Source: Myxococcota bacterium
GTDB taxonomy: Bacteria; Myxococcota; Kuafuiibacteriia; Kuafuiibacteriales; Kuafuiibacteriaceae
DNA length: 12,929 nucleotides
Direction of reading: 5' to 3'
NCBI GenBank assembly: GCA_036788295.1
Contig: DAIQNR010000139.1
Span: 1 to 12,929, forward strand
A program made the position numbers and the translations under genes. A model generated the notes under the pieces. That model searched no databases. It was given only the letters and a program-made list of their open reading frames with translations, and was not told the DNA's origin. Shown one piece after another: positions 1 to 12,929 of this stretch (within the stretch, counting starts at the first letter, position 1; every line of letters begins with the position of its first letter).

Positions 1-1418
1 CGGCGGGTGCGGAGGCGGTATTCGATGGTGGAGCCGGGCCAGAGGGTCGCGTTTCGGCCGTCGGGGCCGCGGTACCAGCTCGTGCAGCCGCCGGTGTTCC
101 ATACCGTCCGGTCGAGCCTGCGCTGGATGGTTTGGTCGTAGGCTCGGGCGACGTCTTCCTCGACTTCGACCCGCTCGAGCCGGCCGGACCGGACCTCCTC
201 GATGAGCGAGAGCACGTAGCCGATCTGGGCTTCGGCCATGAGGAGCACGGACGTGTGCCCGAGCCCGGTGTTCGGTCCGAGCAAAAGATAGAAGTTCGGA
301 AAGCCGGGCACCGTGATCCCGAGGTGGGCGAGCGGTGCGCCAGCCCAGGCCTCTTGTAGGCTCCTGCCGTCTCGGCCTCGAACCTCGAGCGGAAAGAGAA
401 ACTGGGTGACGTCGAATCCGGTGGCAAAGACGAGCGTGTCCGCCGGGCGCTCGACGCCGCCCGCCACCACGCCTCCGGGGACGATGCCCGTGATGGGCTC
501 ATCGACGAGCTCGACGTGGGTCTCGGCGAGCGCCGGGTAGTAGGTGTCGGACAGCAAGATCCGCTTGCAGCCGATTCGATAGTTTGGGGTGAGGCGAGCC
601 CGGAGGCTTTTGTCCTTCACCTGCCGGCGGAGGTGGGCCCGCGCGCGTCGCTCGGCCATCCACCGAAGCGCCGGCGCCGCATACAGAGCGGTCCCCAGAA
701 GCTCGTTTCTCGCGTCGAGAACCACCCGGTGAAAGGCGCGAAGGCACGGGATGCGGCGAAACAGGGTTCTTCGGCGCTCGCCGTAGGGGGCATCGCCGCG
801 GGGAAGGACCCACGGTGGCGTCCGCTGAAAGACGAGCAGCCTCGATGCCGTCCTCGCGAGCTCGGGGATGACTTGAATGGCGCTGGCGCCGGTCCCGATG
901 ACCGCCACGGTGCCGTCGAGCGGGACTTCGCTTCTCCACCGGGCGGTGTGCATGACTTCGCCGGCGAAGGACTCGAGGCCCGGGATGTTCGGCCACTGCG
1001 GGATCCGGAGCGGCCCGGTAGCGGCCACCACATGTCTCGCCGTGAAGGCCCCGCCGCTCGTCTCGAGCCGCCAACCATCGCCTTCCCACGACAGCTTCTC
1101 TACGGTGGTCCCGAGACGGAGGTACTCGGTGATCCCCCTGCGCTTCACCATCGCCTCGAGGTAGGCGAGGATCTCGGGCTGGCGGGCGTAGCGGTGCGAC
1201 CAATCCGGGTTTGGCTCGAAGGACAAGGAGTAGAGGTGGCTCTCGACGTCGCAGGCGCACCCCGGGTACGTGTTCGCGAGCCAGGTGCCGCCTACCCGCC
1301 TCTCCGCTTCGAACACGGCAAAGCGCTTCTCACCGCGCTCGAGGAGCCTCGCCGCCATGGCGAGTCCCGCGAAGCCAGCGCCGATCACCGCGACCTCGAG
1401 CCGGTTCTCGTCCGCCAC
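1..1418 (-). CDS. Flavin-dependent monooxygenase (Baeyer-Villiger/FMO family), partial. The 3' end lies beyond the window start; the start is probably GTG at 1416-1418.
   Basis: Reverse-strand translation reads MADENRLEVAVIGAGFAGLAMAARLLERGEKRFAVFEAERRVGGTWLANTYPGCACDVESHLYSLSFEPNP..., so there is an N-terminal GxGxxG FAD-binding fold. The BVMO fingerprint FxGxxxHxxxW appears as FAGEVMHTARW (around 937-969). A second dinucleotide-binding motif, VAVIGTGASAIQ, follows. GC3 is high throughout the frame, and the ORF is open to nt 1, which explains its absence from the complete-ORF track. An in-frame TAG lies 4 codons upstream of the GTG. Confidence 0.7.
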   Translation of the reverse strand, partial: MADENRLEVAVIGAGFAGLAMAARLLERGEKRFAVFEAERRVGGTWLANTYPGCACDVESHLYSLSFEPNPDWSHRYARQPEILAYLEAMVKRRGITEYLRLGTTVEKLSWEGDGWRLETSGGAFTARHVVAATGPLRIPQWPNIPGLESFAGEVMHTARWRSEVPLDGTVAVIGTGASAIQVIPELARTASRLLVFQRTPPWVLPRGDAPYGERRRTLFRRIPCLRAFHRVVLDARNELLGTALYAAPALRWMAERRARAHLRRQVKDKSLRARLTPNYRIGCKRILLSDTYYPALAETHVELVDEPITGIVPGGVVAGGVERPADTLVFATGFDVTQFLFPLEVRGRDGRSLQEAWAGAPLAHLGITVPGFPNFYLLLGPNTGLGHTSVLLMAEAQIGYVLSLIEEVRSGRLERVEVEEDVARAYDQTIQRRLDRTVWNTGGCTSWYRGPDGRNATLWPGSTIEYRLRTR

Positions 1419-1522
1419 CCTTGGAGGCTACCGTGTGCGCCTCCGCCCCGGTAAGGGCTCGCTCGGTCACCGACGCACGGCAGGGGTCTTCTGCTCTTCC
1501 AAGCCTTTCGGTCCATTTCTTT

Positions 1523-1552
1523 CGACGCGACGCAACCCGACGCGTCGCGTCG
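1523..1552. promoter_or_regulatory. Perfect 11-bp inverted repeat CGACGCGACGC / GCGTCGCGTCG, containing a nested GACGCGTC palindrome, in the divergent intergenic region between the monooxygenase and CoADR-RHD genes. Candidate operator or leader hairpin.
   Basis: Read directly from the sequence: the arms are cgacgcgacgc (1523-1533) and gcgtcgcgtcg (1542-1552), which are exact reverse complements, with an 8-bp spacer. The element lies 42 bp upstream of the ATG at 1594. It is not followed by a T-run, so it is unlikely to be a terminator. Confidence 0.4.
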
Positions 1553-1593
1553 CCGGGCCCGGACCCTCGGCCGCGGCGTTGGCTCCAACGGCC

Positions 1594-3252
1594 ATGGGCA
1601 AACGAATCCTCATCGTGGGCGGGGTGGCCGGCGGCGCATCGGCCGCCGCGCGGGCTCGGCGGCTCGACGAGTCGGCCGAGATCGTGATCTTCGACCGCGG
1701 ACCCCACGTCTCGTTCGCGAACTGCGGCCTCCCGTACTTCGTCGGGGACGTGATTCGGGACGAAGCGTCGCTGCTCGTCGCCACCCCCGAGCTGTTTCGG
1801 GACCGGTTTCGCATCGAGATCCACACCGAGACCGAGGCGGTGGCGATCGATCCGAAAGCCAAGACCATCGAGGTTCGCTCGGTGAAGACCGGCGAGCGGA
1901 GGACCGAACGCTACGACGCGCTCGTCTTGTCCCCCGGTGCCTCCGCCATCCGGCCCCCGGTGCCCGGGGCTGAGCTCCCCGGCATCTTCGTCGTCCGAAC
2001 CATTCCCGACAGCCAGCGCATTCGGAGCTGGCTCACCGACCGCGCCGCAAAGCACGCCGTGGTGGTCGGAGGGGGCTTCATCGGGCTCGAGATGGCCGAG
2101 AACCTCCACCACCGCGGCGTCTCGGTCGCGGTGGTGGAGATGGCGCCGCAGGTGATGCCGCCGCTCGACCCGGAGATGGCGAGCTTTCTTTCCCACCGGC
2201 TCACCGAGCGCGGGGTCGAGCTGCTGTTGGGGGACGCGGTCACCGGCTTTCGGTCTCTCCCTGGGGACCGGCTCGAAGTGTCGACCCGGGCCGGGGCGGC
2301 CATCGAGACCGATCTGGTCATCTTGGCCGTTGGAGTTCGGCCCGAGACCGAGCTCGCTCGGGCGGCGGGCCTCTCGCTTGGGGCCCGGGGCGGGATCGAG
2401 GTGGACGAGCGCATGCGCACCAGCGCCCCCGGGATTTGGGCGGTGGGCGATGCGGTCGAGGTGCGCGAGACGATCACCGGGATCGACATCGTGCTTCCGC
2501 TCGCCGGCCCGGCGAACCGCCAGGGGCGGGTGGCGGCGGCGGACATCTGTGGCCGTCCGGCCCGGTTTCGCGGGGTGCAGGGGACGTCCGTGGTGGGATG
2601 CTTCGGGCTGACCGCGGCGATGACCGGCTGCAGCGAGCGGGCGCTTCGCCGGGCGAACCTCACGAACTACGAGGTCGTCTACCTCCACCCCGGACACCAT
2701 GCCTCGTACTATCCGGGCGCCAAACCCATTCACATGAAGCTCATCTTCGAGGCGAAGAGCGGGAAGATCCTGGGGGCGCAGGCGGTCGGGGAAGAGGGGG
2801 TGGCCCGCCGGATCGACGTCATCAGCACCGCGATCCAGCTCGGCGGCACGGTGTTCGATCTCGAGGAAGCGGAGCTGTGTTATGCGCCCCAGTTCGGGGC
2901 GGCCAAGGACCCGGTCAATGTGGCCGGCATGATCGGCGCCAACGTGCTTCGGGGGGACCTTCCGCTCGCCGATGCCGCGTCCCTGCCCGAGGTGCCCCCC
3001 GGGGTCCTCGTGCTCGACGTGCGGCGCCCGGCCGAAGTGGAGCGAGGCGCGATCCCGGGCGCCATCAACATCCCCCTCGAGTCGCTGCGCGAGCGCGCCG
3101 AAGAGCTGCCGAGAGACGAAGACATCTGGGTGTATTGCCAGGTGGGACAGCGTGGCTATTTTGCCACCCGCCTGCTGGTGCAGCTCGGCTATCGGGCCCA
3201 AAACGTCTCCGGCGGCTTTGCCACCTTCCAGGCCCGCCAAAGTCAGTCGTAG
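1594..3252 (+). CDS. CoA-disulfide reductase / NADH oxidase-family flavoprotein with a C-terminal rhodanese domain (CoADR-RHD; persulfide/polysulfide reductase-like).
   Basis: Translation from ATG 1594: MGKRILIVGGVAGGASAAARA... (FAD GxGxxG). It carries the single redox-active Cys motif SFANCGLPY (Cys codon 1723-1725) typical of Nox/CoADR, and a second NAD(P)-binding motif VVVGGGFIGLEMAE. The C-terminal rhodanese catalytic loop is YCQVGQRG (Cys codon around 3136-3138). The track ORF 1270..3252 is in the same frame, but its first 108 codons are non-coding leader. Confidence 0.9.
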   Translation: MGKRILIVGGVAGGASAAARARRLDESAEIVIFDRGPHVSFANCGLPYFVGDVIRDEASLLVATPELFRDRFRIEIHTETEAVAIDPKAKTIEVRSVKTGERRTERYDALVLSPGASAIRPPVPGAELPGIFVVRTIPDSQRIRSWLTDRAAKHAVVVGGGFIGLEMAENLHHRGVSVAVVEMAPQVMPPLDPEMASFLSHRLTERGVELLLGDAVTGFRSLPGDRLEVSTRAGAAIETDLVILAVGVRPETELARAAGLSLGARGGIEVDERMRTSAPGIWAVGDAVEVRETITGIDIVLPLAGPANRQGRVAAADICGRPARFRGVQGTSVVGCFGLTAAMTGCSERALRRANLTNYEVVYLHPGHHASYYPGAKPIHMKLIFEAKSGKILGAQAVGEEGVARRIDVISTAIQLGGTVFDLEEAELCYAPQFGAAKDPVNVAGMIGANVLRGDLPLADAASLPEVPPGVLVLDVRRPAEVERGAIPGAINIPLESLRERAEELPRDEDIWVYCQVGQRGYFATRLLVQLGYRAQNVSGGFATFQARQSQS

Positions 3253-3256
3253 CGCC

Positions 3257-3511
3257 TCAACCCTCGAGCATCGGGGCGAGCTCACCGGAGCGGTCGAGCC
3301 CCGCGAGCTCGGTGTAGCCCCCGATCGATTGGTCCCCGATGAAGATCTGGGGCACGGTCCGCTGCCCGGTGGCCTGCTGAAGCCAGGTCCTCGTCTTCGT
3401 GTCCCCGTCGACGTCGATCTCTTCGAAGGGGATTCCCCGGTGCTTGAGCAGGGCCCGGGCCCGTTGGCAGTACGGGCACCACTGGGTGAGGTAGACCTTG
3501 ACCGGTTTCAT
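3257..3511 (-). CDS. grxC: Glutaredoxin (Grx3-like, CPYC active site).
   Basis: The 84-aa protein MKPVKVYLTQWCPYCQRARALLKHRGIPFEEIDVDGD...TVPQIFIGDQSIGGYTEL has the CPYC motif, the TVPQIF cis-Pro loop and GG-[D/E] glutathione-binding elements of classical dithiol glutaredoxins. It sits 31 nt downstream of the giant ATPase gene's stop, and its own stop is 4 bp from the convergent CoADR-RHD stop. Confidence 0.88.
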   Translation of the reverse strand: MKPVKVYLTQWCPYCQRARALLKHRGIPFEEIDVDGDTKTRTWLQQATGQRTVPQIFIGDQSIGGYTELAGLDRSGELAPMLEG

Positions 3512-3542
3512 GAACGAGACATACCGCGCGGGGCCCGGCCGT

Positions 3543-6500
3543 TCACCGGTTTTCTGGGGCTGGCTCGAGCGGGAAGAGCGGCGAGACCGGTCCGGCCAGC
3601 GCGTGAACGCGGAGCAAATCGAGCAGCTCGCCGAGCGCCGGCCACAGCCGGCGGGCCTCGTCGTGGCTGGTGGCCGCGGCCCGCGCGAGCGGCCCGAGCG
3701 CCGATTCGAGCCGGGCGAGCGGCGCGGCGAGCGCGTCGTCGAGCCCCAAAGGAGGCTCGCTCGTGACCGACACCGACAGCTTAGGCTCCGACAGCCTGCC
3801 GAGCGCCTGCTCGAGCCGCTCGAGCGCGAGGAGGACGGCGCCGTGCTGGTGGTCCGACGCCCCGTTGGTCGCCTTCTTCGCGGCCGCGCCGATGTCCGAT
3901 AGATGCTCGGTGACCCCGGCGAGGATCGAGGCGATGCGGGCGGCCGGGTCGTCGTCCGCCCCGCCCGCGACCTGGAGGCGGCGAAACTCCCGCTTCATCT
4001 CGCTCCACCGGGAGCTCTCCGCCTCCGACATCCGCCCCCTGAGCTCGGCGAGCTTGAGGAGGTTCGCCTCGGCGCCGGAGGTCAAGGTCTGCGACTCCCC
4101 TCGGTAGTGGTCGTCGATGAGCGACTCGAGCTCCGCATCGTTCATGGCTGGGACCACCTTCTCGGTGAGTTTGTTCATGTTCCGATAAGAACCCTGAAGC
4201 TTGAACGGCGGCTCGGTTCGAAATCTGTCGTCCTGGGAAGCGGAGGCGATGTATTGCTGGTTCACCTCCAGCAGGACCGCCTGCACCTTCGTGAGCCGGC
4301 GAAGGGTCTGCACCGCCTCTTCGGCCTCGACCGAGGACCAGTCCTGCTCGAAGTCGCTGTCCGCGACCTCGCGGCCCCGGGCCCGCTCGATGAAGCGGTG
4401 CAGGTCGGGCAGCGAGCGGGCCGCCATCGGGCCGAGCACCGGGCTCGAGGTGAGCGCGTTTTCGAGGTAGGACAACGCGAAGACCTCCTCCCGGCCGGCG
4501 AGGACGTCGCCGAGGTTGTAGGTGTCGGCGCGGTTTGCGAGCATGTCCGGGATCTGAAACTTGTCTCCAGTCTCCGTGTAGGGGTTGCCTGCCATCACCA
4601 CGCAGAACTTCTTGCCCCGAAGGTCATAGGTCTTCGTCCGGCCCTTCCAGACCCCTTCGACCCGGCGCTGCCCGTCGCACAAGGAGATGAACTTCTGGAG
4701 CAGCTCTGGGTTCGTGTGCTGGATGTCATCGAGGTACAGCATCACGTTGTTGCCCATCTCGAACGCGAGGTTCATCTTCTCCACCTCCTGCCTGGAGGTA
4801 GCGTTTGGTGCCTCGGCCGGGTCGAGCGAGCGCACCCCGTGGCCGAGCGCGGGCCCGTTCACCTTCATGAACACCATGCCCAGCCTGGCCGCGACGTACT
4901 CCATCAGCGTCGTCTTGCCGTAGCCGGGAGGGGAGACGACGAGCAGTAGGCCCATGAGATCGGTCCGCTTGGCGTCGCCGGCGGCGCCGAGCTGCTTCGC
5001 GAGGTTGTCGCCGATGAGCGGCAGGTAGACCTCGTCGATGAGGCGGTTTCGAACGAAGCTGCTCAGCACTTGGGGCACGGCCTCGCTGAGCCGCAGGCGG
5101 GCCTTCGCCGCCTCGAGCACCCGGTGCCGCGCGTGCTGAAACCGCCGAAAGCCAGGGACCCGCTCGGCATGAAACCGGTGAAGGCGCTCTTCGAACTCGT
5201 CGATCGATAGGTTCAGGCCGCCATCGATCCTCGGGTGAAGGCCGAGCAGACCCTCCACCCGGGCCTCGATGAGCGCGCTGCTCGTCTCTCGGTCGATGCG
5301 CCCGGCGAGCACGAGGCCGGCGGCTGCCTCCTCCGCCACCGGGCCAAACGCGAGCCCGAGCTCGGCCTCGTAGGCCTTCACCCAGGCAAACGCGAGGCGA
5401 AACGCAGCCGCTGGGTCGTCCTGCAGCGCGGACAGGTCGGCTTCGAGCGCCCTCCAGCTCCCGTCGTGGTGGAGCCGCTCGAGCAGCCCGGCCCGGAGCT
5501 TCTCCGCCGCTTCGCTCTCGACGAAATGGGGATGGGCGACCGCCAACTCTTCGGCCAGGTACCGGGCGCAGGTGCGGACCGACGCTCCGAACGGGGCGAC
5601 GAAATCGGCCATCGCGGCGGCGAGGTCGCCTTCGAGTCCGTCGTCGGCGGATTGGCCGAAGAACGTCTTCAGCCGCCCGAGGCTCTCGGCCCGGCGATGC
5701 AAGCGGGCCTTCGCTTCGTCGTCCCCGGGCTTCGCCCACCACAGCAGCGCCGCCGCTCGGGCGGTGGGAGGGTGGCGGAGCCGCCCGGCGGAGGAGGACA
5801 AGACGAGCAGCTTCTCCAATATTTGCGCAGCGTCGTGATCGTGAACCCCTCGCTCGTAGCCTTCGTCGTACCGGTCCTGGGCAAAACGCCGCACCGCGGC
5901 GGCGAGCGGAGCCCCCCGGGCGCCGAGCACCTCCCGGTCGATGTCCCCTCTTTCCGCCGCCTCCCGCACCGAAAAGGCGAGGTACTCCCCCCGGTAGACT
6001 TCTTTTGACTCCGATACGAGCGGTTCGGCGAAGAACGCGGACAAGGACAGCAGCTCGGGATCGTCCACCGCTTCGAAGAAGTCGGTGCCGGCGACGTGCA
6101 GCGCGAGCCCGTCCCCCCGCGGAACCATGGTGAGATCGAAGGGCTGGGTGTGGACGCGAAACCGGTGCCGCCCCAGGCGGATGAGCGCCGAGTCCCCGTC
6201 GAAGAGGTCCCGCTTGTCCCGGAGATTTCGAAGCGCGGTCTGCTTCGCGGTGAGCAGGCGGGCGCCGAGGTCTTCGGCCTTCACGCCGTCGTCGAGCTCG
6301 AGCAGGCGCTCCCGGATCCCAGACAGGCGGAGGATCATGGGATCGGAGGCGAAGTAGGCGTTGAGCCCGTCCTCGTCGGCGAAGCTGCGGGACCTGCGCT
6401 CGGCTCCATCGAGGATCCGGGCCCCCGCCTCGAACAAGTGGGCGGAGCGGCGCTGGCGCTCGTCGAGCAGCTGCTGCTTCCTGGCCCCGAAGGCCTCGCC

Positions 6501-8798
6501 GATCTCCTCCCGCTTCGTGGTGAGATCGGCGAGCAGCTCGTCCACGCCGGCGAACCGGGCTTCGAGGTCCTCGAGCTGGCCGAGCAGCCGCCCCAGCTGC
6601 TCGTCGCAGGCCTCCGGGGTGTCGGCGAGCGCCACCGCGCTCTCGACGCTCTGGCCGAGCAAGCGAAACTGCGCCGCGAACTCCGATCGGGCTTCGGCCG
6701 AGGTGAGCGTTCGCCGCCGCTGCTCGAGCGTGGCGCGGGCCCGGTTCAGGGCGGCGTAGACCTCCGAGATGCTCTCGAGCAGGCCCGTCCGCTCGCTCGG
6801 ATCTTCGACCTCGAGGCCCGCGACCACCTCCGACAAGAGCCCGAGACCCTCGGCGAGCCGCTCCGCCTCTGCCGTCAGCGGCAAAAGCTCTGGGCTCTTT
6901 TCGACCCGCGACGCCTCGCCGAGCAGCCGCTGGGCCGCCTCGGCCACCGGCGCGAGCGCGGCTCCGGTACCGAGGAAAAAGACGCAACCGTCGTTGACGT
7001 GAGCCGAGGCCTGCACGACCTCGGCCTCGAGCTCGTCGAGCGCGGGCCGGTCGATGAGCCGAACGTCCCGGAGCGTGATGAGATGTCCCCGCCACCGCCG
7101 GAGCTCGGACATCGCCAAAAGAAATGGCTCGAGCTGCTGCCACTCGCTCGGGCGGTGCTCCCTCAGCAGCCGGCCCTGCTCCTTTTTGGCCTCGGCGAGC
7201 GCCTGCCCGGCCCGGGCTCTCAGCGACAGGACCTTCTCGAACTCGTCGATGACGAGCTCGGTGGCCCGGCGCACGGCGAGGATCGGCTCGGCGAGCGCAC
7301 CGGCCTCCTCGCTCGCGAGCCAGTGGTAGGTGCCGACCGCGCGGCTCGCCGCGCCGATGAGATCCTCGAAGGTCCGCCTGCTCGGCGCGGGGGTGTTCGC
7401 GAGGCGCACGATCTCGAGTCCGTCCGATATCCCCCGGACCAGCTCGGCGTTGCCGATGCGCTCGAGAAAGCCTCCGCCGGTGGGCAAGCTCGCCGCGTGC
7501 TCTTCCGACATGAACGGGGTTTGCCAAATCTGCACCGGGTGGACCCGGCTCGGCTCGCCCCGGGGCTGCCTGGTCAAGAGCAGCTTTCCGTCGGGAAACA
7601 AGGTGAACCCGTGGCCTTCGAGCGGGGCCGCCACCTCCTTTCGAATGAGATTGTAGGGCAAGAGCAGGTACCGGCCGTCCTCCTGGTGGTAGAAGACATA
7701 CAGCACGTCCTCGCCGTTTGGCGCGCGGACCACCCGCTCGAAGACCAGGTCGTCGATCTCGGTGTCGAAGACCTTCAGCTCCCCCGTCTCGAGATAGTAG
7801 CCGCCGGGGAACACGATCCCGTGGTCTTCGGGGAGGAGCAGGCAGGCTTGCCCGACCGCGTCCACCCGGCGCACATCCCTGGTGCGGGTATTGTAGATGA
7901 GGTAGCGCCGCTGCTTCTCTTGAAAGGGGAGGATCTCGAGGAGGATGAGCGCGCCGACCTTGGCGTAGGCGTACTCCGCGTCATCGAGGCTCTGCCGGGG
8001 GTCGTCCACCGGCTCCTGATAGATGCCGAGCCCGTCCTCGGTGTTGTCCTCCACCTTGACGGTGAGATCGCCGCCGACGGTCTCCACGAAGACGGTGTCG
8101 AGGATGTTGACGTGGGGGTGGCGGCCCCGGCGCTGATCCTCCCTCGTGGTCTTCGTGAACGAAAAGGGGTGAGAAGGAGGGAATTGGTAGTCCTCCTCGG
8201 CCCGGTTGTCGATGTAGGCCACTCCGCCGCCGGCGGACAGCCCCCACCGAAACCCACGCACGTCGGTGAGCCGCTGCCCGGTTTGGAACATCGCGAGCAG
8301 GCGGCCTTGCTGCACGGTGACCCGCACGAGCCGCGCGCCCTGGTAGAAGCGGTGCAGCTCGTTGAAATCGCTCAGAAAACGGGGGTCGTCGAACAACCCG
8401 GGGATCGCCTCTGGGCCGAGACCCTCGAGGCTTGGACCTTCACCCAAGCGGTGCAGGGCGAACACATCCCCGAGCGTCGTCTCCGTCTTGAGGCCCAAGA
8501 ACACGTTGTACGCAAAGACGAGCACGTCCCCCAGGCTCACCAGATCCCTGGGGATGCAGTTGTTGTCGGTGCGCACCCGCTCGTTGGCGATCACCTCGAG
8601 CGGCGTGCCCCCGAAGGTCTCGATCCGGCGCCGGTTGAGCGCCTCCGCGCGCTCACCGAGCCCGGTCGCGGCTTCCTTCAGCCGGCGCAGCAGCACCTCG
8701 TAGCTTCCGCCTTCGAGGGTCTCGGCCGGCTTTTCATCGTGCTTCGCCTTCGTCATGCCGCTCTCTTTTTCGGGTTGCGCCGGTCTTTTGGCGGCCAT
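3543..8798 (-). CDS. Giant (1751 aa) multidomain protein. Residues 60-440 form a beta-rich N-terminal domain. Residues 450-1250 form a long alpha-helical/coiled-coil region. The C-terminal part is a MoxR/AAA_5-type AAA+ ATPase domain. Function unknown.
   Basis: A single uninterrupted frame of 5256 nt with strong GC3 bias. The ATG at 8796-8798 lies 7 nt after the flotillin stop. The C-terminal region carries Walker A SPPGYGKTT (around 4908-4931) and Walker B VMLYLDDIQHTNPELLQKF, which parallels the MoxR hhhhDEINRAppkvQsaLL segment. AGNPYTETGDKFQIPDMLANRA parallels the MoxR sensor-1/arginine region ATQNP...LPEALLDRF. The N-terminal and central domains have no motif I can name. Confidence 0.8.
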   Translation of the reverse strand: MAAKRPAQPEKESGMTKAKHDEKPAETLEGGSYEVLLRRLKEAATGLGERAEALNRRRIETFGGTPLEVIANERVRTDNNCIPRDLVSLGDVLVFAYNVFLGLKTETTLGDVFALHRLGEGPSLEGLGPEAIPGLFDDPRFLSDFNELHRFYQGARLVRVTVQQGRLLAMFQTGQRLTDVRGFRWGLSAGGGVAYIDNRAEEDYQFPPSHPFSFTKTTREDQRRGRHPHVNILDTVFVETVGGDLTVKVEDNTEDGLGIYQEPVDDPRQSLDDAEYAYAKVGALILLEILPFQEKQRRYLIYNTRTRDVRRVDAVGQACLLLPEDHGIVFPGGYYLETGELKVFDTEIDDLVFERVVRAPNGEDVLYVFYHQEDGRYLLLPYNLIRKEVAAPLEGHGFTLFPDGKLLLTRQPRGEPSRVHPVQIWQTPFMSEEHAASLPTGGGFLERIGNAELVRGISDGLEIVRLANTPAPSRRTFEDLIGAASRAVGTYHWLASEEAGALAEPILAVRRATELVIDEFEKVLSLRARAGQALAEAKKEQGRLLREHRPSEWQQLEPFLLAMSELRRWRGHLITLRDVRLIDRPALDELEAEVVQASAHVNDGCVFFLGTGAALAPVAEAAQRLLGEASRVEKSPELLPLTAEAERLAEGLGLLSEVVAGLEVEDPSERTGLLESISEVYAALNRARATLEQRRRTLTSAEARSEFAAQFRLLGQSVESAVALADTPEACDEQLGRLLGQLEDLEARFAGVDELLADLTTKREEIGEAFGARKQQLLDERQRRSAHLFEAGARILDGAERRSRSFADEDGLNAYFASDPMILRLSGIRERLLELDDGVKAEDLGARLLTAKQTALRNLRDKRDLFDGDSALIRLGRHRFRVHTQPFDLTMVPRGDGLALHVAGTDFFEAVDDPELLSLSAFFAEPLVSESKEVYRGEYLAFSVREAAERGDIDREVLGARGAPLAAAVRRFAQDRYDEGYERGVHDHDAAQILEKLLVLSSSAGRLRHPPTARAAALLWWAKPGDDEAKARLHRRAESLGRLKTFFGQSADDGLEGDLAAAMADFVAPFGASVRTCARYLAEELAVAHPHFVESEAAEKLRAGLLERLHHDGSWRALEADLSALQDDPAAAFRLAFAWVKAYEAELGLAFGPVAEEAAAGLVLAGRIDRETSSALIEARVEGLLGLHPRIDGGLNLSIDEFEERLHRFHAERVPGFRRFQHARHRVLEAAKARLRLSEAVPQVLSSFVRNRLIDEVYLPLIGDNLAKQLGAAGDAKRTDLMGLLLVVSPPGYGKTTLMEYVAARLGMVFMKVNGPALGHGVRSLDPAEAPNATSRQEVEKMNLAFEMGNNVMLYLDDIQHTNPELLQKFISLCDGQRRVEGVWKGRTKTYDLRGKKFCVVMAGNPYTETGDKFQIPDMLANRADTYNLGDVLAGREEVFALSYLENALTSSPVLGPMAARSLPDLHRFIERARGREVADSDFEQDWSSVEAEEAVQTLRRLTKVQAVLLEVNQQYIASASQDDRFRTEPPFKLQGSYRNMNKLTEKVVPAMNDAELESLIDDHYRGESQTLTSGAEANLLKLAELRGRMSEAESSRWSEMKREFRRLQVAGGADDDPAARIASILAGVTEHLSDIGAAAKKATNGASDHQHGAVLLALERLEQALGRLSEPKLSVSVTSEPPLGLDDALAAPLARLESALGPLARAAATSHDEARRLWPALGELLDLLRVHALAGPVSPLFPLEPAPENR
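4480..4990 (-). other. AAA+ ATPase domain (MoxR / AAA_5 dynein-related subfamily) inside the giant ORF.
   Basis: P-loop GYGKTT codons lie at 4908-4925. The Walker B DD codons lie at 4725-4730 (LYLDDIQH). The sensor-1-like AGNPY and IPDMLANRA motifs lie downstream. The order and spacing of the motifs match MoxR/CbbQ/McrB-type AAA_5 domains. Confidence 0.7.
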
Positions 8799-8805
8799 GC
8801 TGGGA

Positions 8806-10923
8806 TTAGTTGACCGGGCCGCGGTTCGTATCGAGCCCCAGCTCGTTGGCTCGGTCGGCCAGCGCCTCGAGCTTCACGCGGGTGGGGGCGTCGGCGCCGG
8901 CCATCAGCCGCGCGATGAGCGTGCTGACGCTCAAGTCCCGAACCCCGGCCGCGCCCAGGCTGCCCACCGCGTCGATCAGCTCCGCGGGCAGGCTCCGGCC
9001 GCCGTTGAGGTAGTCGCCAAACAGGGACTTCAGGTGGGTCGAGCCGTCGAGCGCGCCGTCCACCGAGCGGCCGACCGAGACCGCCTGAACGAACCGGTCG
9101 AAGAACGCGCCGTCGCCACCCACGATCTGGATGTTCGCGGCCGAGAACGCCTCCTTGAGGATCGCCGCTCGCTCCTTCGCGATGCGCTCCTCGGCCGTGA
9201 TCCGGGCCAGCGACAGGGCCCGGTCGTGCTCGAGCCGCAGGCGGTACTCCTCGTGGCTTCGGCTCGCTTCGTCGAGCGCGGCCATCGCGCGGGCCTTCTC
9301 CGCGATGCCCGACGCTTCGGCGGCGAGCTTCTTCTCGATGCCGACCGCCTCCGCGAGCGCGGTGCGCTCGAGCACGGTCGCGTCGGCGATGCCCCGCTTC
9401 TCCACCGCGGCGGCGTCCGCTTCCTTGACCCGAACCTCGGCCATGCCTCGCTCCTCGTGGCCGCGGGCCTCCGCCTCGAGCTGCTCCCGGGTGACCCGGG
9501 CCTTCGCCGCCCCTTCCTTCTCGAGGGCCAGCGCGTCCGCTTCCCGCACCCGCGCCTTCGCGAGGCCGTCCGCCGCCGCCTCGGCCTGCCGGCCCTCGGC
9601 CAGACGCGCCTTCGCCTTCGCGTCCCGGTCCGCCGCCTCGAGGTCGGCTTCGGCGAGAGTCAGCCGCTCCTTGGCCGCGTGCCGAGCCGCCTGCTCCTTG
9701 GCTTCCGCCGCGCGGGTGGTCGCGATGAGCTTCTCCTCGGCTTCGGCCGAGGCGGCGGTGACGAGCACCTCCTTCTCCCGCTTCGCGGTCATGATCGCCC
9801 GAAGGTCCGCGATTCGCTCCTCTTCCTCGGCGACGTTCTTCTCGACCGCGATCCGGTCCCGGACCACGTCGGCGATGTTCTTCTTCTCGACCTCGATCTC
9901 CCGCTCTTTGGCGATCCGCTGCAGCTCGGTCTCCCGCTCCCTCGAGATCGCCTCGAGCATGCGATCCTTCTCGACCCGCTCGGTCTCCACCGCGATCGCC
10001 CGCTCCCTTGCCTTCTGCGCGATCTCGATCTGCCGGCGCTTGGCTTCCTGCCCGACCTCTACCTCCTGCTCGGCCGCGATCTTCGCGAGCTGCGCCTTTT
10101 GGTACTCCTCCGCCTGCACCCGGGCCGTCTCCGCCTCCTCGCGGGCCTTGCGCACCGCGATCTCCCTCGCTTGCACCGCTCGGGCGTCCTTCTCCTGCCG
10201 CTCGAGGCTCAGCACCGCCGCCTCCGCCTCCACGTTCTGCTTCGTGACCTCCTTTCGCTCGTTCTGCCGAAGCAGGTTCGTCTGGATGTTCTGGAGCGTG
10301 GTCAGCTCGGTGATCTTTCGGATGCCCTGGGCGTCGAGGATGTTCTCCGGGTCCAGGGTCTCGATCGGCGTCTGCTCGAGAAAGTCGATGGCGGCGTCGT
10401 CGAGCACGTAGCCGTTCAGATCGGTCCCGATGTTGCGGATGATTTGGTCCTTGAAGTCGTGGCGCTGGGTGTACAGCGCCTCGAAATCGAGCTGCTTTCC
10501 CACCGTCTTCAGCGCTTCGGAGAACTTCGCCTGAAAGAGCTGCTCGAGCGTGGCTTGGTCGGACGCGCGGTTGCACCCAACCTGTTGAGCGACCCGGAGC
10601 ACGTCTTCTTTCGTCTTGTTCACCTTCACGAAGAACGTGACCTTGATGTCGGCGCGAATGTTGTCGCGGCAGATGAGGCCCTCTTTCCCGCGGCGGTCGA
10701 GCTCGATCGTCTTCAAAGAGATGTCCATCGTCTCCGCCCGATGGATGACCGGGAGCACGAGACCTCCGGTGAATTTGACCTCGGGGTCGCCCTGCATGCG
10801 GTTGATGATGAGCGCGCGGCCCTGGTCCACCTTCCGGTAGAAGAGCTTGAGGATCATCGCCATCCCGATGAGAATGGCGACGAGGGCGCCCGCGCCCGTT
10901 CCTACGAAGTACAGTATATCCAT
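8806..10923 (-). CDS. Flotillin-family SPFH/band-7 protein (FloT/YqiK-like), 705 aa, with an extended Ala/Glu-rich coiled coil.
   Basis: It has an N-terminal TM helix (ILYFVGTGAGALVAILIGMAMIL) followed by an SPFH domain (GRALIINRMQ...GLVLPVIHRAETMDISLKTIELDRRGKEGLICRDNIRADIKVTFFVKV...) and then about 350 residues of EA-repeat coiled coil (AEAKEQAARHAAKERLTLAEADLEAADRDAKAKARLAEGRQAEAA...), which is characteristic of bacterial flotillins. A credible RBS (aaggaa) lies about 8 nt upstream of the ATG at 10921-10923. Confidence 0.9.
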   Translation of the reverse strand: MDILYFVGTGAGALVAILIGMAMILKLFYRKVDQGRALIINRMQGDPEVKFTGGLVLPVIHRAETMDISLKTIELDRRGKEGLICRDNIRADIKVTFFVKVNKTKEDVLRVAQQVGCNRASDQATLEQLFQAKFSEALKTVGKQLDFEALYTQRHDFKDQIIRNIGTDLNGYVLDDAAIDFLEQTPIETLDPENILDAQGIRKITELTTLQNIQTNLLRQNERKEVTKQNVEAEAAVLSLERQEKDARAVQAREIAVRKAREEAETARVQAEEYQKAQLAKIAAEQEVEVGQEAKRRQIEIAQKARERAIAVETERVEKDRMLEAISRERETELQRIAKEREIEVEKKNIADVVRDRIAVEKNVAEEEERIADLRAIMTAKREKEVLVTAASAEAEEKLIATTRAAEAKEQAARHAAKERLTLAEADLEAADRDAKAKARLAEGRQAEAAADGLAKARVREADALALEKEGAAKARVTREQLEAEARGHEERGMAEVRVKEADAAAVEKRGIADATVLERTALAEAVGIEKKLAAEASGIAEKARAMAALDEASRSHEEYRLRLEHDRALSLARITAEERIAKERAAILKEAFSAANIQIVGGDGAFFDRFVQAVSVGRSVDGALDGSTHLKSLFGDYLNGGRSLPAELIDAVGSLGAAGVRDLSVSTLIARLMAGADAPTRVKLEALADRANELGLDTNRGPVN

Positions 10924-10989
10924 GTCTCGGTTCCTTGTATGGGCCTCGTCGCGTTGGCCTTCGGTCGAATGGTTGGGGAAGGATCGAGG

Positions 10990-11628
10990 TCAGATGTCCT
11001 CGGGTGTGGGTTCGCGCTCGAGCGGCTCGACCCGAAAGGCGTCGAGCTTCTCGTCGAACGCGATGATGAGGGCGTGGTCGCCGCGGCGCAGACGCCCGGG
11101 CTCGGCCCGAACCTGAAGGATCCGCCAGTCGCCGCCTTCCTCGAGCCGGGCTTGCCCAAAACCAAGGTCCACCTCCCCGGTGCTGATCCGGCAGCTGCGG
11201 CCGATGAGGTCGCTCTGGGCTTCGGCCGACGCACCCGAAAACAGGGGGCCGAGCCGAGCGGCGATCATGTGGAGGGCAGGCGCGGTGACCGCGAGGCTGC
11301 CGACGCCGACGAGGCCGCCGAGCGCGAGGCCCATCGGACCGTCCTGGGGGCCCAAGGACCGCATCGCCAGGTAGGAAGTCGCCCACGCGAACAGCGACCA
11401 CAAGCTGAGGAGGATCGACGCCGGAACCTTGCCGAGCCCGAGCCAGGCGAGCAGGGCGGCGCCGGTTCCGAGCCCCTCGAGCAGCCCGCTTGCCCCCTCG
11501 ACCTCATCGTGAAGGCCCATCCCGGTCAGGCCGACGACGACCCAGTACAGGACGGCGATGGCGAGCAGAACGGAGAACACTCCGGTGGGAAAACGGGTGG
11601 CATGATCGAAAAACGCATCCATGGGCAA
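10990..11628 (-). CDS. NfeD/YqiJ-like polytopic membrane protein with a C-terminal soluble beta-domain (flotillin-associated partner).
   Basis: About 130 N-terminal residues are hydrophobic, giving roughly four predicted TM helices (VFSVLLAIAVLYWVVVGLTGMGL; GAALLAWLGLG; ILLSLWSLFAWATSYLAM; LALGGLVGVGSLAVTAPALHMIAARLG). These are followed by a beta-rich tail (CRISTGEVDLGFGQARLEEGGDWRILQVRAEPGRLRRGDHALIIAFDEKLDAFRVEP) consistent with an NfeD OB-fold. The gene sits immediately upstream of the flotillin gene, matching the yqiJ-yqiK / yuaF-floT arrangement. The track start at 11628 is a TTG, so the true start may instead be the ATG at 11620-11622. Confidence 0.6.
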   Translation of the reverse strand: MPMDAFFDHATRFPTGVFSVLLAIAVLYWVVVGLTGMGLHDEVEGASGLLEGLGTGAALLAWLGLGKVPASILLSLWSLFAWATSYLAMRSLGPQDGPMGLALGGLVGVGSLAVTAPALHMIAARLGPLFSGASAEAQSDLIGRSCRISTGEVDLGFGQARLEEGGDWRILQVRAEPGRLRRGDHALIIAFDEKLDAFRVEPLEREPTPEDI

Positions 11629-11853
11629 GTCCGGTCAGCGGCACAAAAGAGGCGACTTCGGCGAGGTCCCCGGGCTCGGCGCGGCCGCCGAAGCGACCGG
11701 GTGACGACGACTCCGAATTCGCTTCGACAATACCTTGGGTAGCCACCGGAGTTCGCACCGTCACCCTGGTTTTCTCGTCGGCCTGCGTTTTCTCTCTCGC
11801 GGCCGATTCGACCGGTGGTTGACGCCGGCCAGGACGGAGCGCACCGACCTCTC
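11629..11853. promoter_or_regulatory. Divergent intergenic region (225 bp) between the NfeD/YqiJ-like operon (-) and the HEAT-repeat gene (+). It presumably contains both promoters.
   Basis: This is the only appreciably T-rich, lower-GC stretch in the window (ctggttttctcgtcggcctgcgttttctctctcgcgg, around 11765-11801). A TTGACG hexamer lies at 11819-11824, but there is no convincing -10 element, so exact promoter elements cannot be called. Confidence 0.3.
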
Positions 11854-12929
11854 ATGCCCGGACTGCTCGTCGTCGAACATCGGCCGGCCGTGGCCCACGC
11901 GGTCCGCTCGCTGGCGACCGCGCTCGGGGTCCCGATGGCCAAGCGGCGGGAGCCGCCGGCGCTGGTGGTGGGCCGACTCCATCGGCTCGGCCCGGCGCGA
12001 GCGGTCTCGGCGCCGGTCCTCCTTCTCGGGGGACCGCGACCGGCGTTCATCGCCCCCGACGGCGGCGCCGTGCTCGGATACCTTCCGTATTCGTCGGGCT
12101 GGCAGACGGCGCTGGCCGAGCAGTGGGTCGGATTCTTCGGCTTGAAAACCTCCATCATCCCACCGGTTCACGCCGCCCCGCCCACCCTGGCCCTGCGGGC
12201 ACCCGCCAGGTGGGATCGACTGTTCGAGGTCGTGGCCGAGGGCGGGCCGCTCGCTGGACCGGCGCTCGTCGCGCTCGCCGGCCGAGCGCCCGCGTCCGAA
12301 GTCGCCGGGGTGGTGCGCGCGGCGCTCCTCCAGGAGGACCTCGCGCTCGCTCGAGCGGCGCTCCGCGCGGCCGTTCGGCTCGGCGACTCGGGGCTCCTGA
12401 AGGGGGCGGCGAGCCACGCTCGCTCGGGCGCGGTGCGGATCGAGGCCATCGAATGGCTGGCCCGGCTGCTCGACGGGACCGAGCTCGACGAGGCCCTCCC
12501 CTTCGACGACCCGGACCGGGCGGTTCGGGTCCACGCCCTCCGGGTCCGCGTGCGCGAGCGGGGGGCCGACGCGGAGGAGCTCACCGAGGTGCTCGTGGCG
12601 CCCGAGGACGCGATCGGAGCGGTGCTCGGGGCAATCGAGCTCGGTCGGGCCGGGCTCGGGCTCCTCGACCGATGGTCCCGCGACCGATCCCTCCCCGCAT
12701 CGGCCCGGGCTGCAGCCGTGGGTGGCCTGCGCCGAGCCGGCCTGGCCCCGGGGCCTCTCGACCCTGAGGTTTCGGCGTGGCTTTCGCCTCCGGCGACGAG
12801 CCTCCCGCTCGAGCGGGCAGCGTGGTCGGACTTCGCCGATACCGCGCCGCTCGAACCGGCGACCGGGCCGCTCGAACCGGCTACGGTGCCGCTCCAACCG
12901 GTGACCGGGCCGCTCGAACCGGCGACGGC
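11854..12929 (+). CDS. HEAT/PBS-lyase-type repeat protein, partial (continues beyond the window), ending in tandem heptapeptide repeats.
   Basis: The frame from ATG 11854 translates as MPGLLVVEHRPAVAHAVRSLATALGVP... with strong GC3 bias. It contains HEAT-like units (AAVRLGDSGLLKGAASHARSGAVRIEAIEWLARLLDG...DDPDRAVRVHALRVRVRE...). The frame is open to the window end, so it is absent from the complete-ORF track. The overlapping track ORFs 11761..12897 (-) and 12123..12767 (+) translate to Arg-rich low-complexity sequence and were judged to be shadow ORFs. Confidence 0.5.
   Translation, partial: MPGLLVVEHRPAVAHAVRSLATALGVPMAKRREPPALVVGRLHRLGPARAVSAPVLLLGGPRPAFIAPDGGAVLGYLPYSSGWQTALAEQWVGFFGLKTSIIPPVHAAPPTLALRAPARWDRLFEVVAEGGPLAGPALVALAGRAPASEVAGVVRAALLQEDLALARAALRAAVRLGDSGLLKGAASHARSGAVRIEAIEWLARLLDGTELDEALPFDDPDRAVRVHALRVRVRERGADAEELTEVLVAPEDAIGAVLGAIELGRAGLGLLDRWSRDRSLPASARAAAVGGLRRAGLAPGPLDPEVSAWLSPPATSLPLERAAWSDFADTAPLEPATGPLEPATVPLQPVTGPLEPAT
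12847..12929 (+). repeat. Tandem 21-bp direct repeat, at least 4 copies, truncated by the window end. It encodes PLEPATG-like heptapeptides.
   Basis: Read directly from the sequence: ccgctcgaaccggcgaccggg (12847-12867), ccgctcgaaccggctacggtg (12868-12888), ccgctccaaccggtgaccggg (12889-12909) and ccgctcgaaccggcgacggc (12910-12929, cut off). These translate in frame to PLEPATG / PLEPATV / PLQPVTG / PLEPAT. Confidence 0.85.

Follow-up and report, generated by a model that had tools for sequence, protein, structure and literature searches.

Organization of the locus

The stretch of DNA analysed here (the window) comprises 12,929 nt of contig DAIQNR010000139.1 from a Myxococcota bacterium (assembly GCA_036788295.1), with a G+C content of ~69% and with metagenome-assembled genomes (MAGs) of Myxococcota and "Deltaproteobacteria" as its nearest relatives. 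It carries four minus-strand genes in series, encoding a YqiJ-like membrane protein, a YqiK-type flotillin, a giant AAA+ protein and a glutaredoxin 3, the first three of which form a module that is widespread, mis-annotated and already described computationally in its architecture. In the order of transcription, these are the gene for a YqiJ/YuaF-like multi-pass inner-membrane protein (10990–11628; 212 aa from a TTG at 11628, or 210 aa from the ATG at 11622 where gene callers start it), the flotillin gene (8806–10923; 705 aa), an open reading frame (ORF) whose product is recognized by its Band_7 domain and homology to YqiK, the gene for the giant cytoplasmic AAA+ protein (3543–8798; 1751 aa from an ATG at 8798) and the glutaredoxin gene (3257–3511; 84 aa).

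An earlier reading of this DNA, made from the letters and a list of ORFs (the original prediction), had reported these four same-strand genes with gaps of 66 nt between the YqiJ-like and flotillin genes, 7 nt between the flotillin and giant genes and 31 nt between the giant and glutaredoxin genes. The sequence bears this out, with one probable amendment. The 7-nt gap presupposes translation from the ATG at 8798, where a ribosome-binding site is lacking; homologues of the giant protein align only from about residue 28, and the NCBI gene call starts at Met15 (8756), after a purine-rich AAGAGAG, giving a protein of 1737 aa and a gap of 49 nt. On these sequence features, position 8756 is the more likely start of the giant gene. 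The module promoter presumably lies in the divergent intergenic region 5′ of the YqiJ-like gene (11629–11853), beyond which the next gene runs on the plus strand from 11854. No sigma-70-like match was found in 11629–11853, no Rfam family in the intergenic regions of the operon, and promoter and terminator scans of these intergenic regions returned nothing useful.

Conservation of the three-gene module

Homologues of the giant protein number more than 6,129, and in a collection with one genome per species the protein occurs in at least 568 species; its N-terminal domain falls into 886 clusters at 50% identity. From the scan of that collection 80 loci were fetched, plus several others, and linkage was counted in the 78 loci whose upstream DNA reached 3.2 kb or more. 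The loci span Myxococcota, Actinomycetota, Gamma-, Beta- and Zetaproteobacteria, Acidobacteriota and Planctomycetota, with plasmid matches adding Bacteroidota and Deinococcus, and the trio occurs in bacteria of at least seven phyla. In every one of the 78 loci the giant gene is preceded, in its own orientation, by a flotillin gene, at a distance of no more than 400 nt in 71 of them. Upstream of the flotillin gene, a YqiJ-like homologue is detectable by tblastn in 70, with a diverged variant in that place in several others. The neighbourhood check suggested along with the original prediction has thus been run, and its proposal that the giant ATPase shares an operon with the YqiJ/flotillin pair recurs in 78 of 78 loci, with gene order and strand kept.

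The linkage of the flotillin and giant genes is far beyond chance, and the pairwise identities of the two proteins among 77 loci rise together, with a correlation that none of 999 Mantel permutations equalled. The trio is passed on together across phyla, although the correlation (r = 0.88) cannot by itself separate vertical descent from co-transfer. Between phyla, the giant protein is 40–56% identical over ~1,700 residues, and the mean column majority in its AAA+ core is 92%. The plasmid collection contains 13 records with the module, several of which are multi-megabase and chromosome-like; they include pQBR103 as well as plasmids of Deinococcus, Streptomyces and Hymenobacter. A DNA-level search of complete E. 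coli genomes with the AAA+ region found no match. Among tractable hosts, the module is present in Pseudomonas fluorescens SBW25 (on pQBR103), in Myxococcus and Streptomyces species and in Proteus mirabilis.

The three largest gaps between the flotillin and giant genes are insertions of other genes. These are two tandem PD-(D/E)XK transposase-like genes in a zetaproteobacterium (locus L079, 7988–9888), a NYN-domain gene with a HepT ribonuclease toxin gene in Lampropedia (L058, 6826–9920), and OmpA/DUF11 surface-protein genes in a Myxococcales MAG (L018, 4065–9360).

The giant AAA+ protein

Pfam searches divide the giant protein into a DUF3686 domain (E = 2.5e-189; residues 47–492, nucleotides 7323–8660), a DUF7902 domain (PF25472, E = 7.1e-24; residues 614–696, nucleotides 6711–6959) lying in a central region that composition analysis marks as helical, and an AAA+ ATPase core (residues 1285–1450, nucleotides 4449–4946), in which AAA_5 and AAA match at ~4e-6 over residues 1285–1408. 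The protein has no hydrophobic 19-mer. DUF3686 is N-terminal wherever the protein is full length (~1600–2000 aa); it is beta-rich, with ~25 predicted strands and 70 near-invariant positions. Ravi et al. 2024 (PMC11237479) call this domain a beta-propeller, a fold that was not confirmed here: AlphaFold2 models of residues 20–505 and 1225–1640, each from an alignment of 9 sequences, reached a predicted local distance difference test (pLDDT) score of only ~62, and a search of PDB sequences with the profile of the N-terminal domain gave chance matches only. The central region (493–1230) is rich in helix-favouring residues, and it has a proline or glycine about every 10 residues and a conserved segment at 866–1010 that is less helix-biased and carries aromatic and glycine invariants. 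The single coiled coil of ~800 residues that the original prediction had seen here is not compatible with these features.

The motifs of the AAA+ core are intact. Walker A (GYGKTT, with K1295), Walker B (LYLDD, with D1357 and D1358), the sensor-1 residue N1405, the candidate arginine finger R1423 and a QGSYRNM motif are all at least 97% conserved in 77 sequences, and the ATPase is therefore very probably active. Walker B departs from the usual hhhhDE pattern in having two aspartates (residues 1357–1358, window 4725–4730), and the LYLDD form is invariant in the 77 sequences across phyla.

To which clade of AAA+ proteins the core belongs is a question on which the original prediction had been specific, describing a MoxR/AAA_5 ATPase at the C-terminal end of the protein. 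The AAA_5 part of this description stands: AAA_5 (PF07728) is the top Pfam model in nine of nine family members, with a best E of 7.5e-9 and scores of 27.5–30.7 bits against a cut-off of 22. The position does not, as ~300 residues follow the core, the last 130 of which are not conserved. Nor does the MoxR identity: AAA_3, the model of MoxR proper, stays below its cut-off on the giant protein (E = 0.17; 12.2 bits versus 27), and the five of nine family members that match it all do so at an E of at least 0.05. The classical AAA model scores nearly equal to AAA_5 on the giant protein. Searching with the AAA+ model (pLDDT 62), Foldseek returned RuvB, NorQ/CbbQ, Lon and Cdc48 about equally (1e-7 to 1e-5, TM-scores ~0.3) and could not tell AAA+ clades apart, and a profile compared with PDB sequences matched Rix7/NVL, RuvB and Cdc48 in the P-loop region alone. 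The model also has a beta-hairpin ahead of the sensor-1 strand.

There are some resemblances to the MoxR family (RavA-ViaA, NorQ-NorD, CbbQ-CbbO), in that AAA_5 is the top Pfam model and NorQ and CbbQ are among the Foldseek matches. After sensor 1 there is also a stretch of the form 'GNPxxExG...IPDxLxNR', which we take to resemble MoxR and related ATPases. What differs is that AAA_3 reaches 12 bits against a cut-off of 27, and that the core sits inside a protein some five times as large as a MoxR. The absence of a gene for a VWA-domain protein, as the original prediction had stated for the window, is borne out by the Pfam search of the window ORFs, and none was found among the recurrent neighbour clusters. 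With AAA_3 below cut-off and the fold matches to RuvB, NorQ/CbbQ, Lon and Cdc48 equally weak, however, a contrast with MoxR–VWA pairs has little force. Judged from its sequence, the giant ATPase is a divergent AAA+ protein of its own family with AAA_5-like features and not a demonstrable MoxR.

The flotillin and the YqiJ-like protein

The first two genes of the module are homologous to E. coli yqiJK and B. subtilis yuaF-floT, and their order is the same; unlike in the window, no ATPase gene follows yqiJK in E. coli K-12. Over 424 aa, the flotillin shares 28% identity with E. coli YqiK (E = 1e-31). It has a single hydrophobic segment at residues 1–32, an N-terminal membrane anchor, followed further along by long Glu/Ala-rich coiled-coil repeats and a conserved C-terminal 'IDIVGGDGxFFD' region. 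At full length it matches nothing in Pfam, NCBIfam or PDB sequences, whereas residues 1–230 searched alone match Band_7 (E = 5e-13; residues 31–173). The missing full-length Pfam match is presumably due to the Glu/Ala-rich coiled coil, which would trigger the bias correction of HMMER. A PDB sequence search with the SPFH domain gave chance matches only.

Flotillins linked to the giant gene are longer than YqiK (626–757 aa, as against 553 aa); they have additional coiled-coil repeats, and those of many lineages also end in an extra tail. We considered the C-terminal ~145 residues as a docking domain specific to the giant protein and dropped this idea, as the 'IVGG' core aligns with the C-terminus of YqiK and the Pseudomonas members have no extra tail. 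The precomputed Pfam field was empty ('-') for every flotillin orthologue seen (loci L001, L002 and L086–L090). In the window, positions 9000–10500 show a very strong AT skew (to -0.45 on the plus strand) and a GC skew, because the Glu/Ala/Lys-rich coiled coil of the flotillin is encoded there on the minus strand.

The YqiJ-like protein has three or four hydrophobic segments, near residues 12–40, 58–76 and 101–124, and a C-terminal soluble domain. Its relationship to YqiJ emerges from profile comparison: a profile built from 17 orthologues aligns with E. coli YqiJ at an hhalign probability of 92.5% (E = 4.9e-7). The Pfam model YqiJ_N is weak on the window protein (E = 0.52), and one of the 17 family members reaches 0.0046. 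Neither the window protein nor the 17 family members match a Pfam NfeD or ClpP-type protease domain, and PDB sequence searches with the protein or its profile gave chance matches only. Of the two halves of the earlier label "YqiJ/NfeD-like", the kinship with YqiJ (DUF1449) is thus retained, as the sole one demonstrated by sequence comparison, and NfeD is not; with no Pfam NfeD match and a profile match to YqiJ, "YqiJ/YuaF-like" is accurate and "NfeD" a loose label.

Prior description and the PspA context

The original prediction had taken the architecture to be undescribed. It is not new: Ravi et al. 2024 (mSystems; bioRxiv 2020; PMC11237479) describe operons in which a CesT/Tir-PspA pair is joined with YqiJ/YuaF, flotillin and AAA+ genes, and also an abbreviated three-gene form. 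Their supplementary table lists the same gene order in Dokdonia donghaensis (ANH61663.1), and they arrived at a contextual inference matching ours, in a treatment that amounts to a few sentences of comparative genomics. The window differs from the CesT/Tir-PspA-YqiJ-flotillin-AAA+ operons in having no CesT/Tir-PspA dyad, as do all sampled loci of Myxococcota and Actinomycetota, and in having a lineage-specific glutaredoxin gene downstream. As an unrelated divergent gene stands upstream of the module and there is no dyad, the window has the abbreviated form; by its gene content, it appears as a myxobacterial-type member of that published form. Our literature searches found nothing that pairs 'DNA repair ATPase' with flotillin or SPFH, and nothing that ties YqiK/YqiJ to an ATPase or SPFH/NfeD to anti-phage roles.

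Clustering of neighbour ORFs, together with a PspA hidden Markov model (HMM), places a YjfI/CesT-like and PspA dyad upstream of the module in 20–21 of 85 loci, directly upstream in most. These are 20 proteobacterial loci, out of ~30 sampled, and one Bacteroidota plasmid. The link to PspA is the most informative clue from genomic context, and it was missed by the original prediction.

The Bacteroidota case is a Hymenobacter plasmid (NZ_CP010056, locus L085) which encodes a Tir-like chaperone, PspA, a DUF1449 protein, an SPFH protein and a "DNA repair ATPase" that is 42% identical to the window ATPase over 92% of its length. On the same plasmid, a gene for a LexA-family repressor (helix-turn-helix and S24 peptidase; 2577–3362 of L085) is divergent from the CesT-PspA-YqiJ-SPFH-ATPase operon; the Dokdonia context in the supplementary table of Ravi et al. 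was noted alongside it. As the repressor gene hints, the operon may be induced by damage or controlled through cleavage in Bacteroidota.

On plasmid pQBR103 of P. fluorescens SBW25 (L084; NC_009444.1, 84.4–97.6 kb), the order is yjfI, pspA (yjfJ-type), and genes for a rhomboid protein, DUF2491, DUF350, DUF1190 and a glutathionylspermidine-synthase-like protein, then the YqiJ-like, SPFH and ATPase genes, so that five genes and ~4 kb lie between the PspA dyad and the module. All ten genes of this cluster are on one strand; a yjfIJKLMC-like PspA and polyamine operon, complete and with a rhomboid protease gene added, leads straight into the module. An MvaT/MvaU-family gene follows the cluster on the opposite strand.

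A proposed function for the module

SPFH proteins assemble into large oligomers shaped like cages or cups, and one such assembly, HflK/C, holds the AAA+ protease FtsH. In B. subtilis, an SPFH protein has been reported as required for PspA to take its place at the membrane. PspA itself is a member of the ESCRT-III superfamily; in archaea and eukaryotes, the proteins of this superfamily are remodelled by Vps4, an AAA+ ATPase. According to a 2025 review, a Vps4-like ATPase is apparently absent in bacteria. We tentatively propose, giving it somewhat less than an even chance, that the cytoplasmic giant ATPase is recruited to the flotillin assembly and remodels flotillin and/or PspA polymers in envelope stress. 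In this model the inner membrane holds the anchor of the YqiK-type flotillin, whose SPFH domain and coiled coil reach into the cytoplasm, and the giant ATPase would dock on this cytoplasmic assembly via its N-terminal beta-rich and helical regions. ATP hydrolysis at this site could then assemble, disassemble or otherwise remodel the flotillin oligomers, and the module as a whole may serve an envelope-stress or membrane-repair response. By analogy, the giant ATPase might function as Vps4 does on ESCRT-III, or as FtsH does when held by HflK/C.

The observations in favour of this proposal are the same-strand linkage to a flotillin gene in all 78 loci, the intact ATPase motifs, the occurrence of a soluble ATPase beside two proteins with hydrophobic segments, and the PspA context. 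One can go further and suggest that, in the giant DUF3686 AAA+ protein, bacteria have the Vps4 counterpart that has seemed to be missing, which the YqiK-type flotillin platform would recruit and which would disassemble or reshape flotillin cages and PspA polymers in membrane repair; this extended version we consider rather unlikely.

Several points weigh against the remodelling proposal. The folds of the N-terminal domain and of the central region are poorly defined (pLDDT ~62). The two aspartates of Walker B may mean that hydrolysis is slow, regulated or regulatory. In the stretch of the AAA+ core that links strand 2 to helix 2, our reading of the sequence shows no evident aromatic pore-loop motif, which argues against a classical threading unfoldase. 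No PspA was found with the HMM within 10 kb in the loci of Myxococcota or Actinomycetota, including the window, so that, as regards PspA, the model draws on other phyla. Finally, our literature searches found no paper that mentions DUF3686 or PF12458 and no experiment on any member of the module.

The likeness to HflK/C-FtsH is that of a membrane SPFH assembly working jointly with an AAA+ machine. FtsH itself is an AAA protease of ~650 aa with a membrane anchor, and its gene lies outside the hflKC operon. The giant ATPase, in contrast to FtsH, is soluble, measures ~1,740 aa, has no protease domain and has an AAA_5-type rather than a classical-clade core. With Vps4/CdvC acting on ESCRT-III/CdvB, the system shares an AAA+ ATPase that is co-encoded with PspA in the extended operons, and the analogy is one of function only: the giant ATPase has neither the MIT domain nor the classical AAA core of Vps4 (AAA and AAA_5 score near-equal, and neither marks Vps4), its size and domain set are wholly different, and PspA is absent from the window.

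If the extended, Vps4-like version is true, the DUF3686 ATPase marks a widespread and never-studied bacterial machine for membrane remodelling. For the assembly and dismantling of bacterial flotillin cages and of PspA/ESCRT-III-like polymers, a giant ATPase encoded with a flotillin in so many species, and clustered with a PspA gene in the proteobacterial and Bacteroidota loci that have one, is an obvious candidate. Database entries would in any case gain from correction, since we found no support for the name "DNA repair ATPase" and the partner flotillins are left without a Pfam domain.

Alternative explanations

The alternative closest to the remodelling proposal is membrane protein quality control, in which the flotillin cage would corral client membrane proteins and the AAA+ protein would extract or unfold them, in the manner of HflK/C-FtsH without the protease or of Cdc48-type extraction. 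The tight linkage of flotillin and AAA+ genes supports this equally well, the fold matches include Cdc48, Lon and FtsH, and the SPFH literature cites chaperone-like roles such as the stabilization of unfolded proteins by S. aureus FloA-NfeD. However, the fold matches are weak, with TM-scores near 0.3, the Pfam search shows no protease or substrate-recognition domain, and a classical aromatic pore loop is not evident on reading the sequence; we regard quality control as unlikely, while acknowledging that on present data it is hardly separable from remodelling of the flotillin assembly. A membrane-associated anti-phage or conflict system, with the flotillin and YqiJ sensing envelope perturbation on infection and the giant ATPase as effector or switch, seems to us a good deal less probable again. 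Such a role would suit the patchy spread across phyla and the occurrence on megaplasmids, the mobile or toxin genes inserted within the operon in some genomes, and the historical tie of PspA to phage stress. Set against this are the searches: of PADLOC-DB 2.0 models run on the four proteins, only mad8 matched, at E = 0.0068 over a 30-residue stretch of the P-loop, and the three proteins other than the giant one matched none; 50,697 phage records held no homologue; no defence gene recurs among the neighbours; no nuclease, protease or other effector domain was found; and conservation at the level described above for the whole protein and its AAA+ core is unusually high for a defence gene.

The two remaining explanations we hold to be very improbable, the second slightly more so than the first. 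One takes the database label at its word. Both the NCBI product name of the giant protein and the title of Pfam PF12458 (DUF3686) are "DNA repair ATPase", and the flotillin neighbour would then reflect membrane-tethered DNA transactions; RuvB is among the best fold and sequence matches, and the LexA-family repressor gene of the Hymenobacter plasmid is divergent from the operon. The likeness to RuvB is, however, limited to the generic P-loop region, scoring 17–19.5 bits where the curated cut-offs are 282–299, no DNA-binding, nuclease, helicase- or repair-specific domain was found, we found no paper backing the label, and the invariant partners are membrane proteins. The other is the four-gene system raised by the original prediction, in which the downstream glutaredoxin would redox-tune a MoxR-type ATPase. 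The protein itself is well identified (TIGR02181 glutaredoxin 3, 95.1 bits versus a cut-off of 90, with CPYC at residues 12–15), its gene is on the same strand as the giant gene, and there is no terminator-like site in the 31 nt between them, so that co-transcription of the two is possible in the window, as far as the sequence tells, but is not conserved. A glutaredoxin gene follows the giant gene in one of the five closest relatives (58–65% identity), at 62% identity, and not in the other four, and a glutaredoxin is absent within 10 kb from all 83 other loci; moreover, AAA_3 is below cut-off. As a part of the system or a redox tuner of it, the glutaredoxin is thus not upheld.

The local redox cluster and flanking genes

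The surroundings of the glutaredoxin gene offer another account of it. Only 4 nt separate its stop codon from the end of a convergent plus-strand gene for a CoA-disulfide reductase with a C-terminal rhodanese domain (1594–3252), beyond which lies a partial minus-strand gene for a flavin monooxygenase (FMO)-like flavoprotein (1–1418), recognized as an ORF. The glutaredoxin gene is a lineage-specific passenger and no part of the conserved module. It would belong to a local thiol/flavin redox cluster (1–3511) that is unrelated to the module, and the cluster probably explains why, in this lineage, a glutaredoxin gene follows the giant gene.

On the other side of the module, the divergent plus-strand ORF from 11854 has no Pfam match and no assigned family, and it runs off the end of the window. 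Three close relatives have a HEAT-repeat gene in its place. A minus-strand ORF of 378 aa that overlaps it (11761–12897) was rejected as a wrong-frame artefact, being Arg-rich, with the real gene in the plus frame. Within the plus-strand gene, a 21-nt tandem repeat at 12841–12926 (~4 copies with 83% matches; a period of 42 nt was scored too) codes for heptapeptide repeats resembling PLEPATG.

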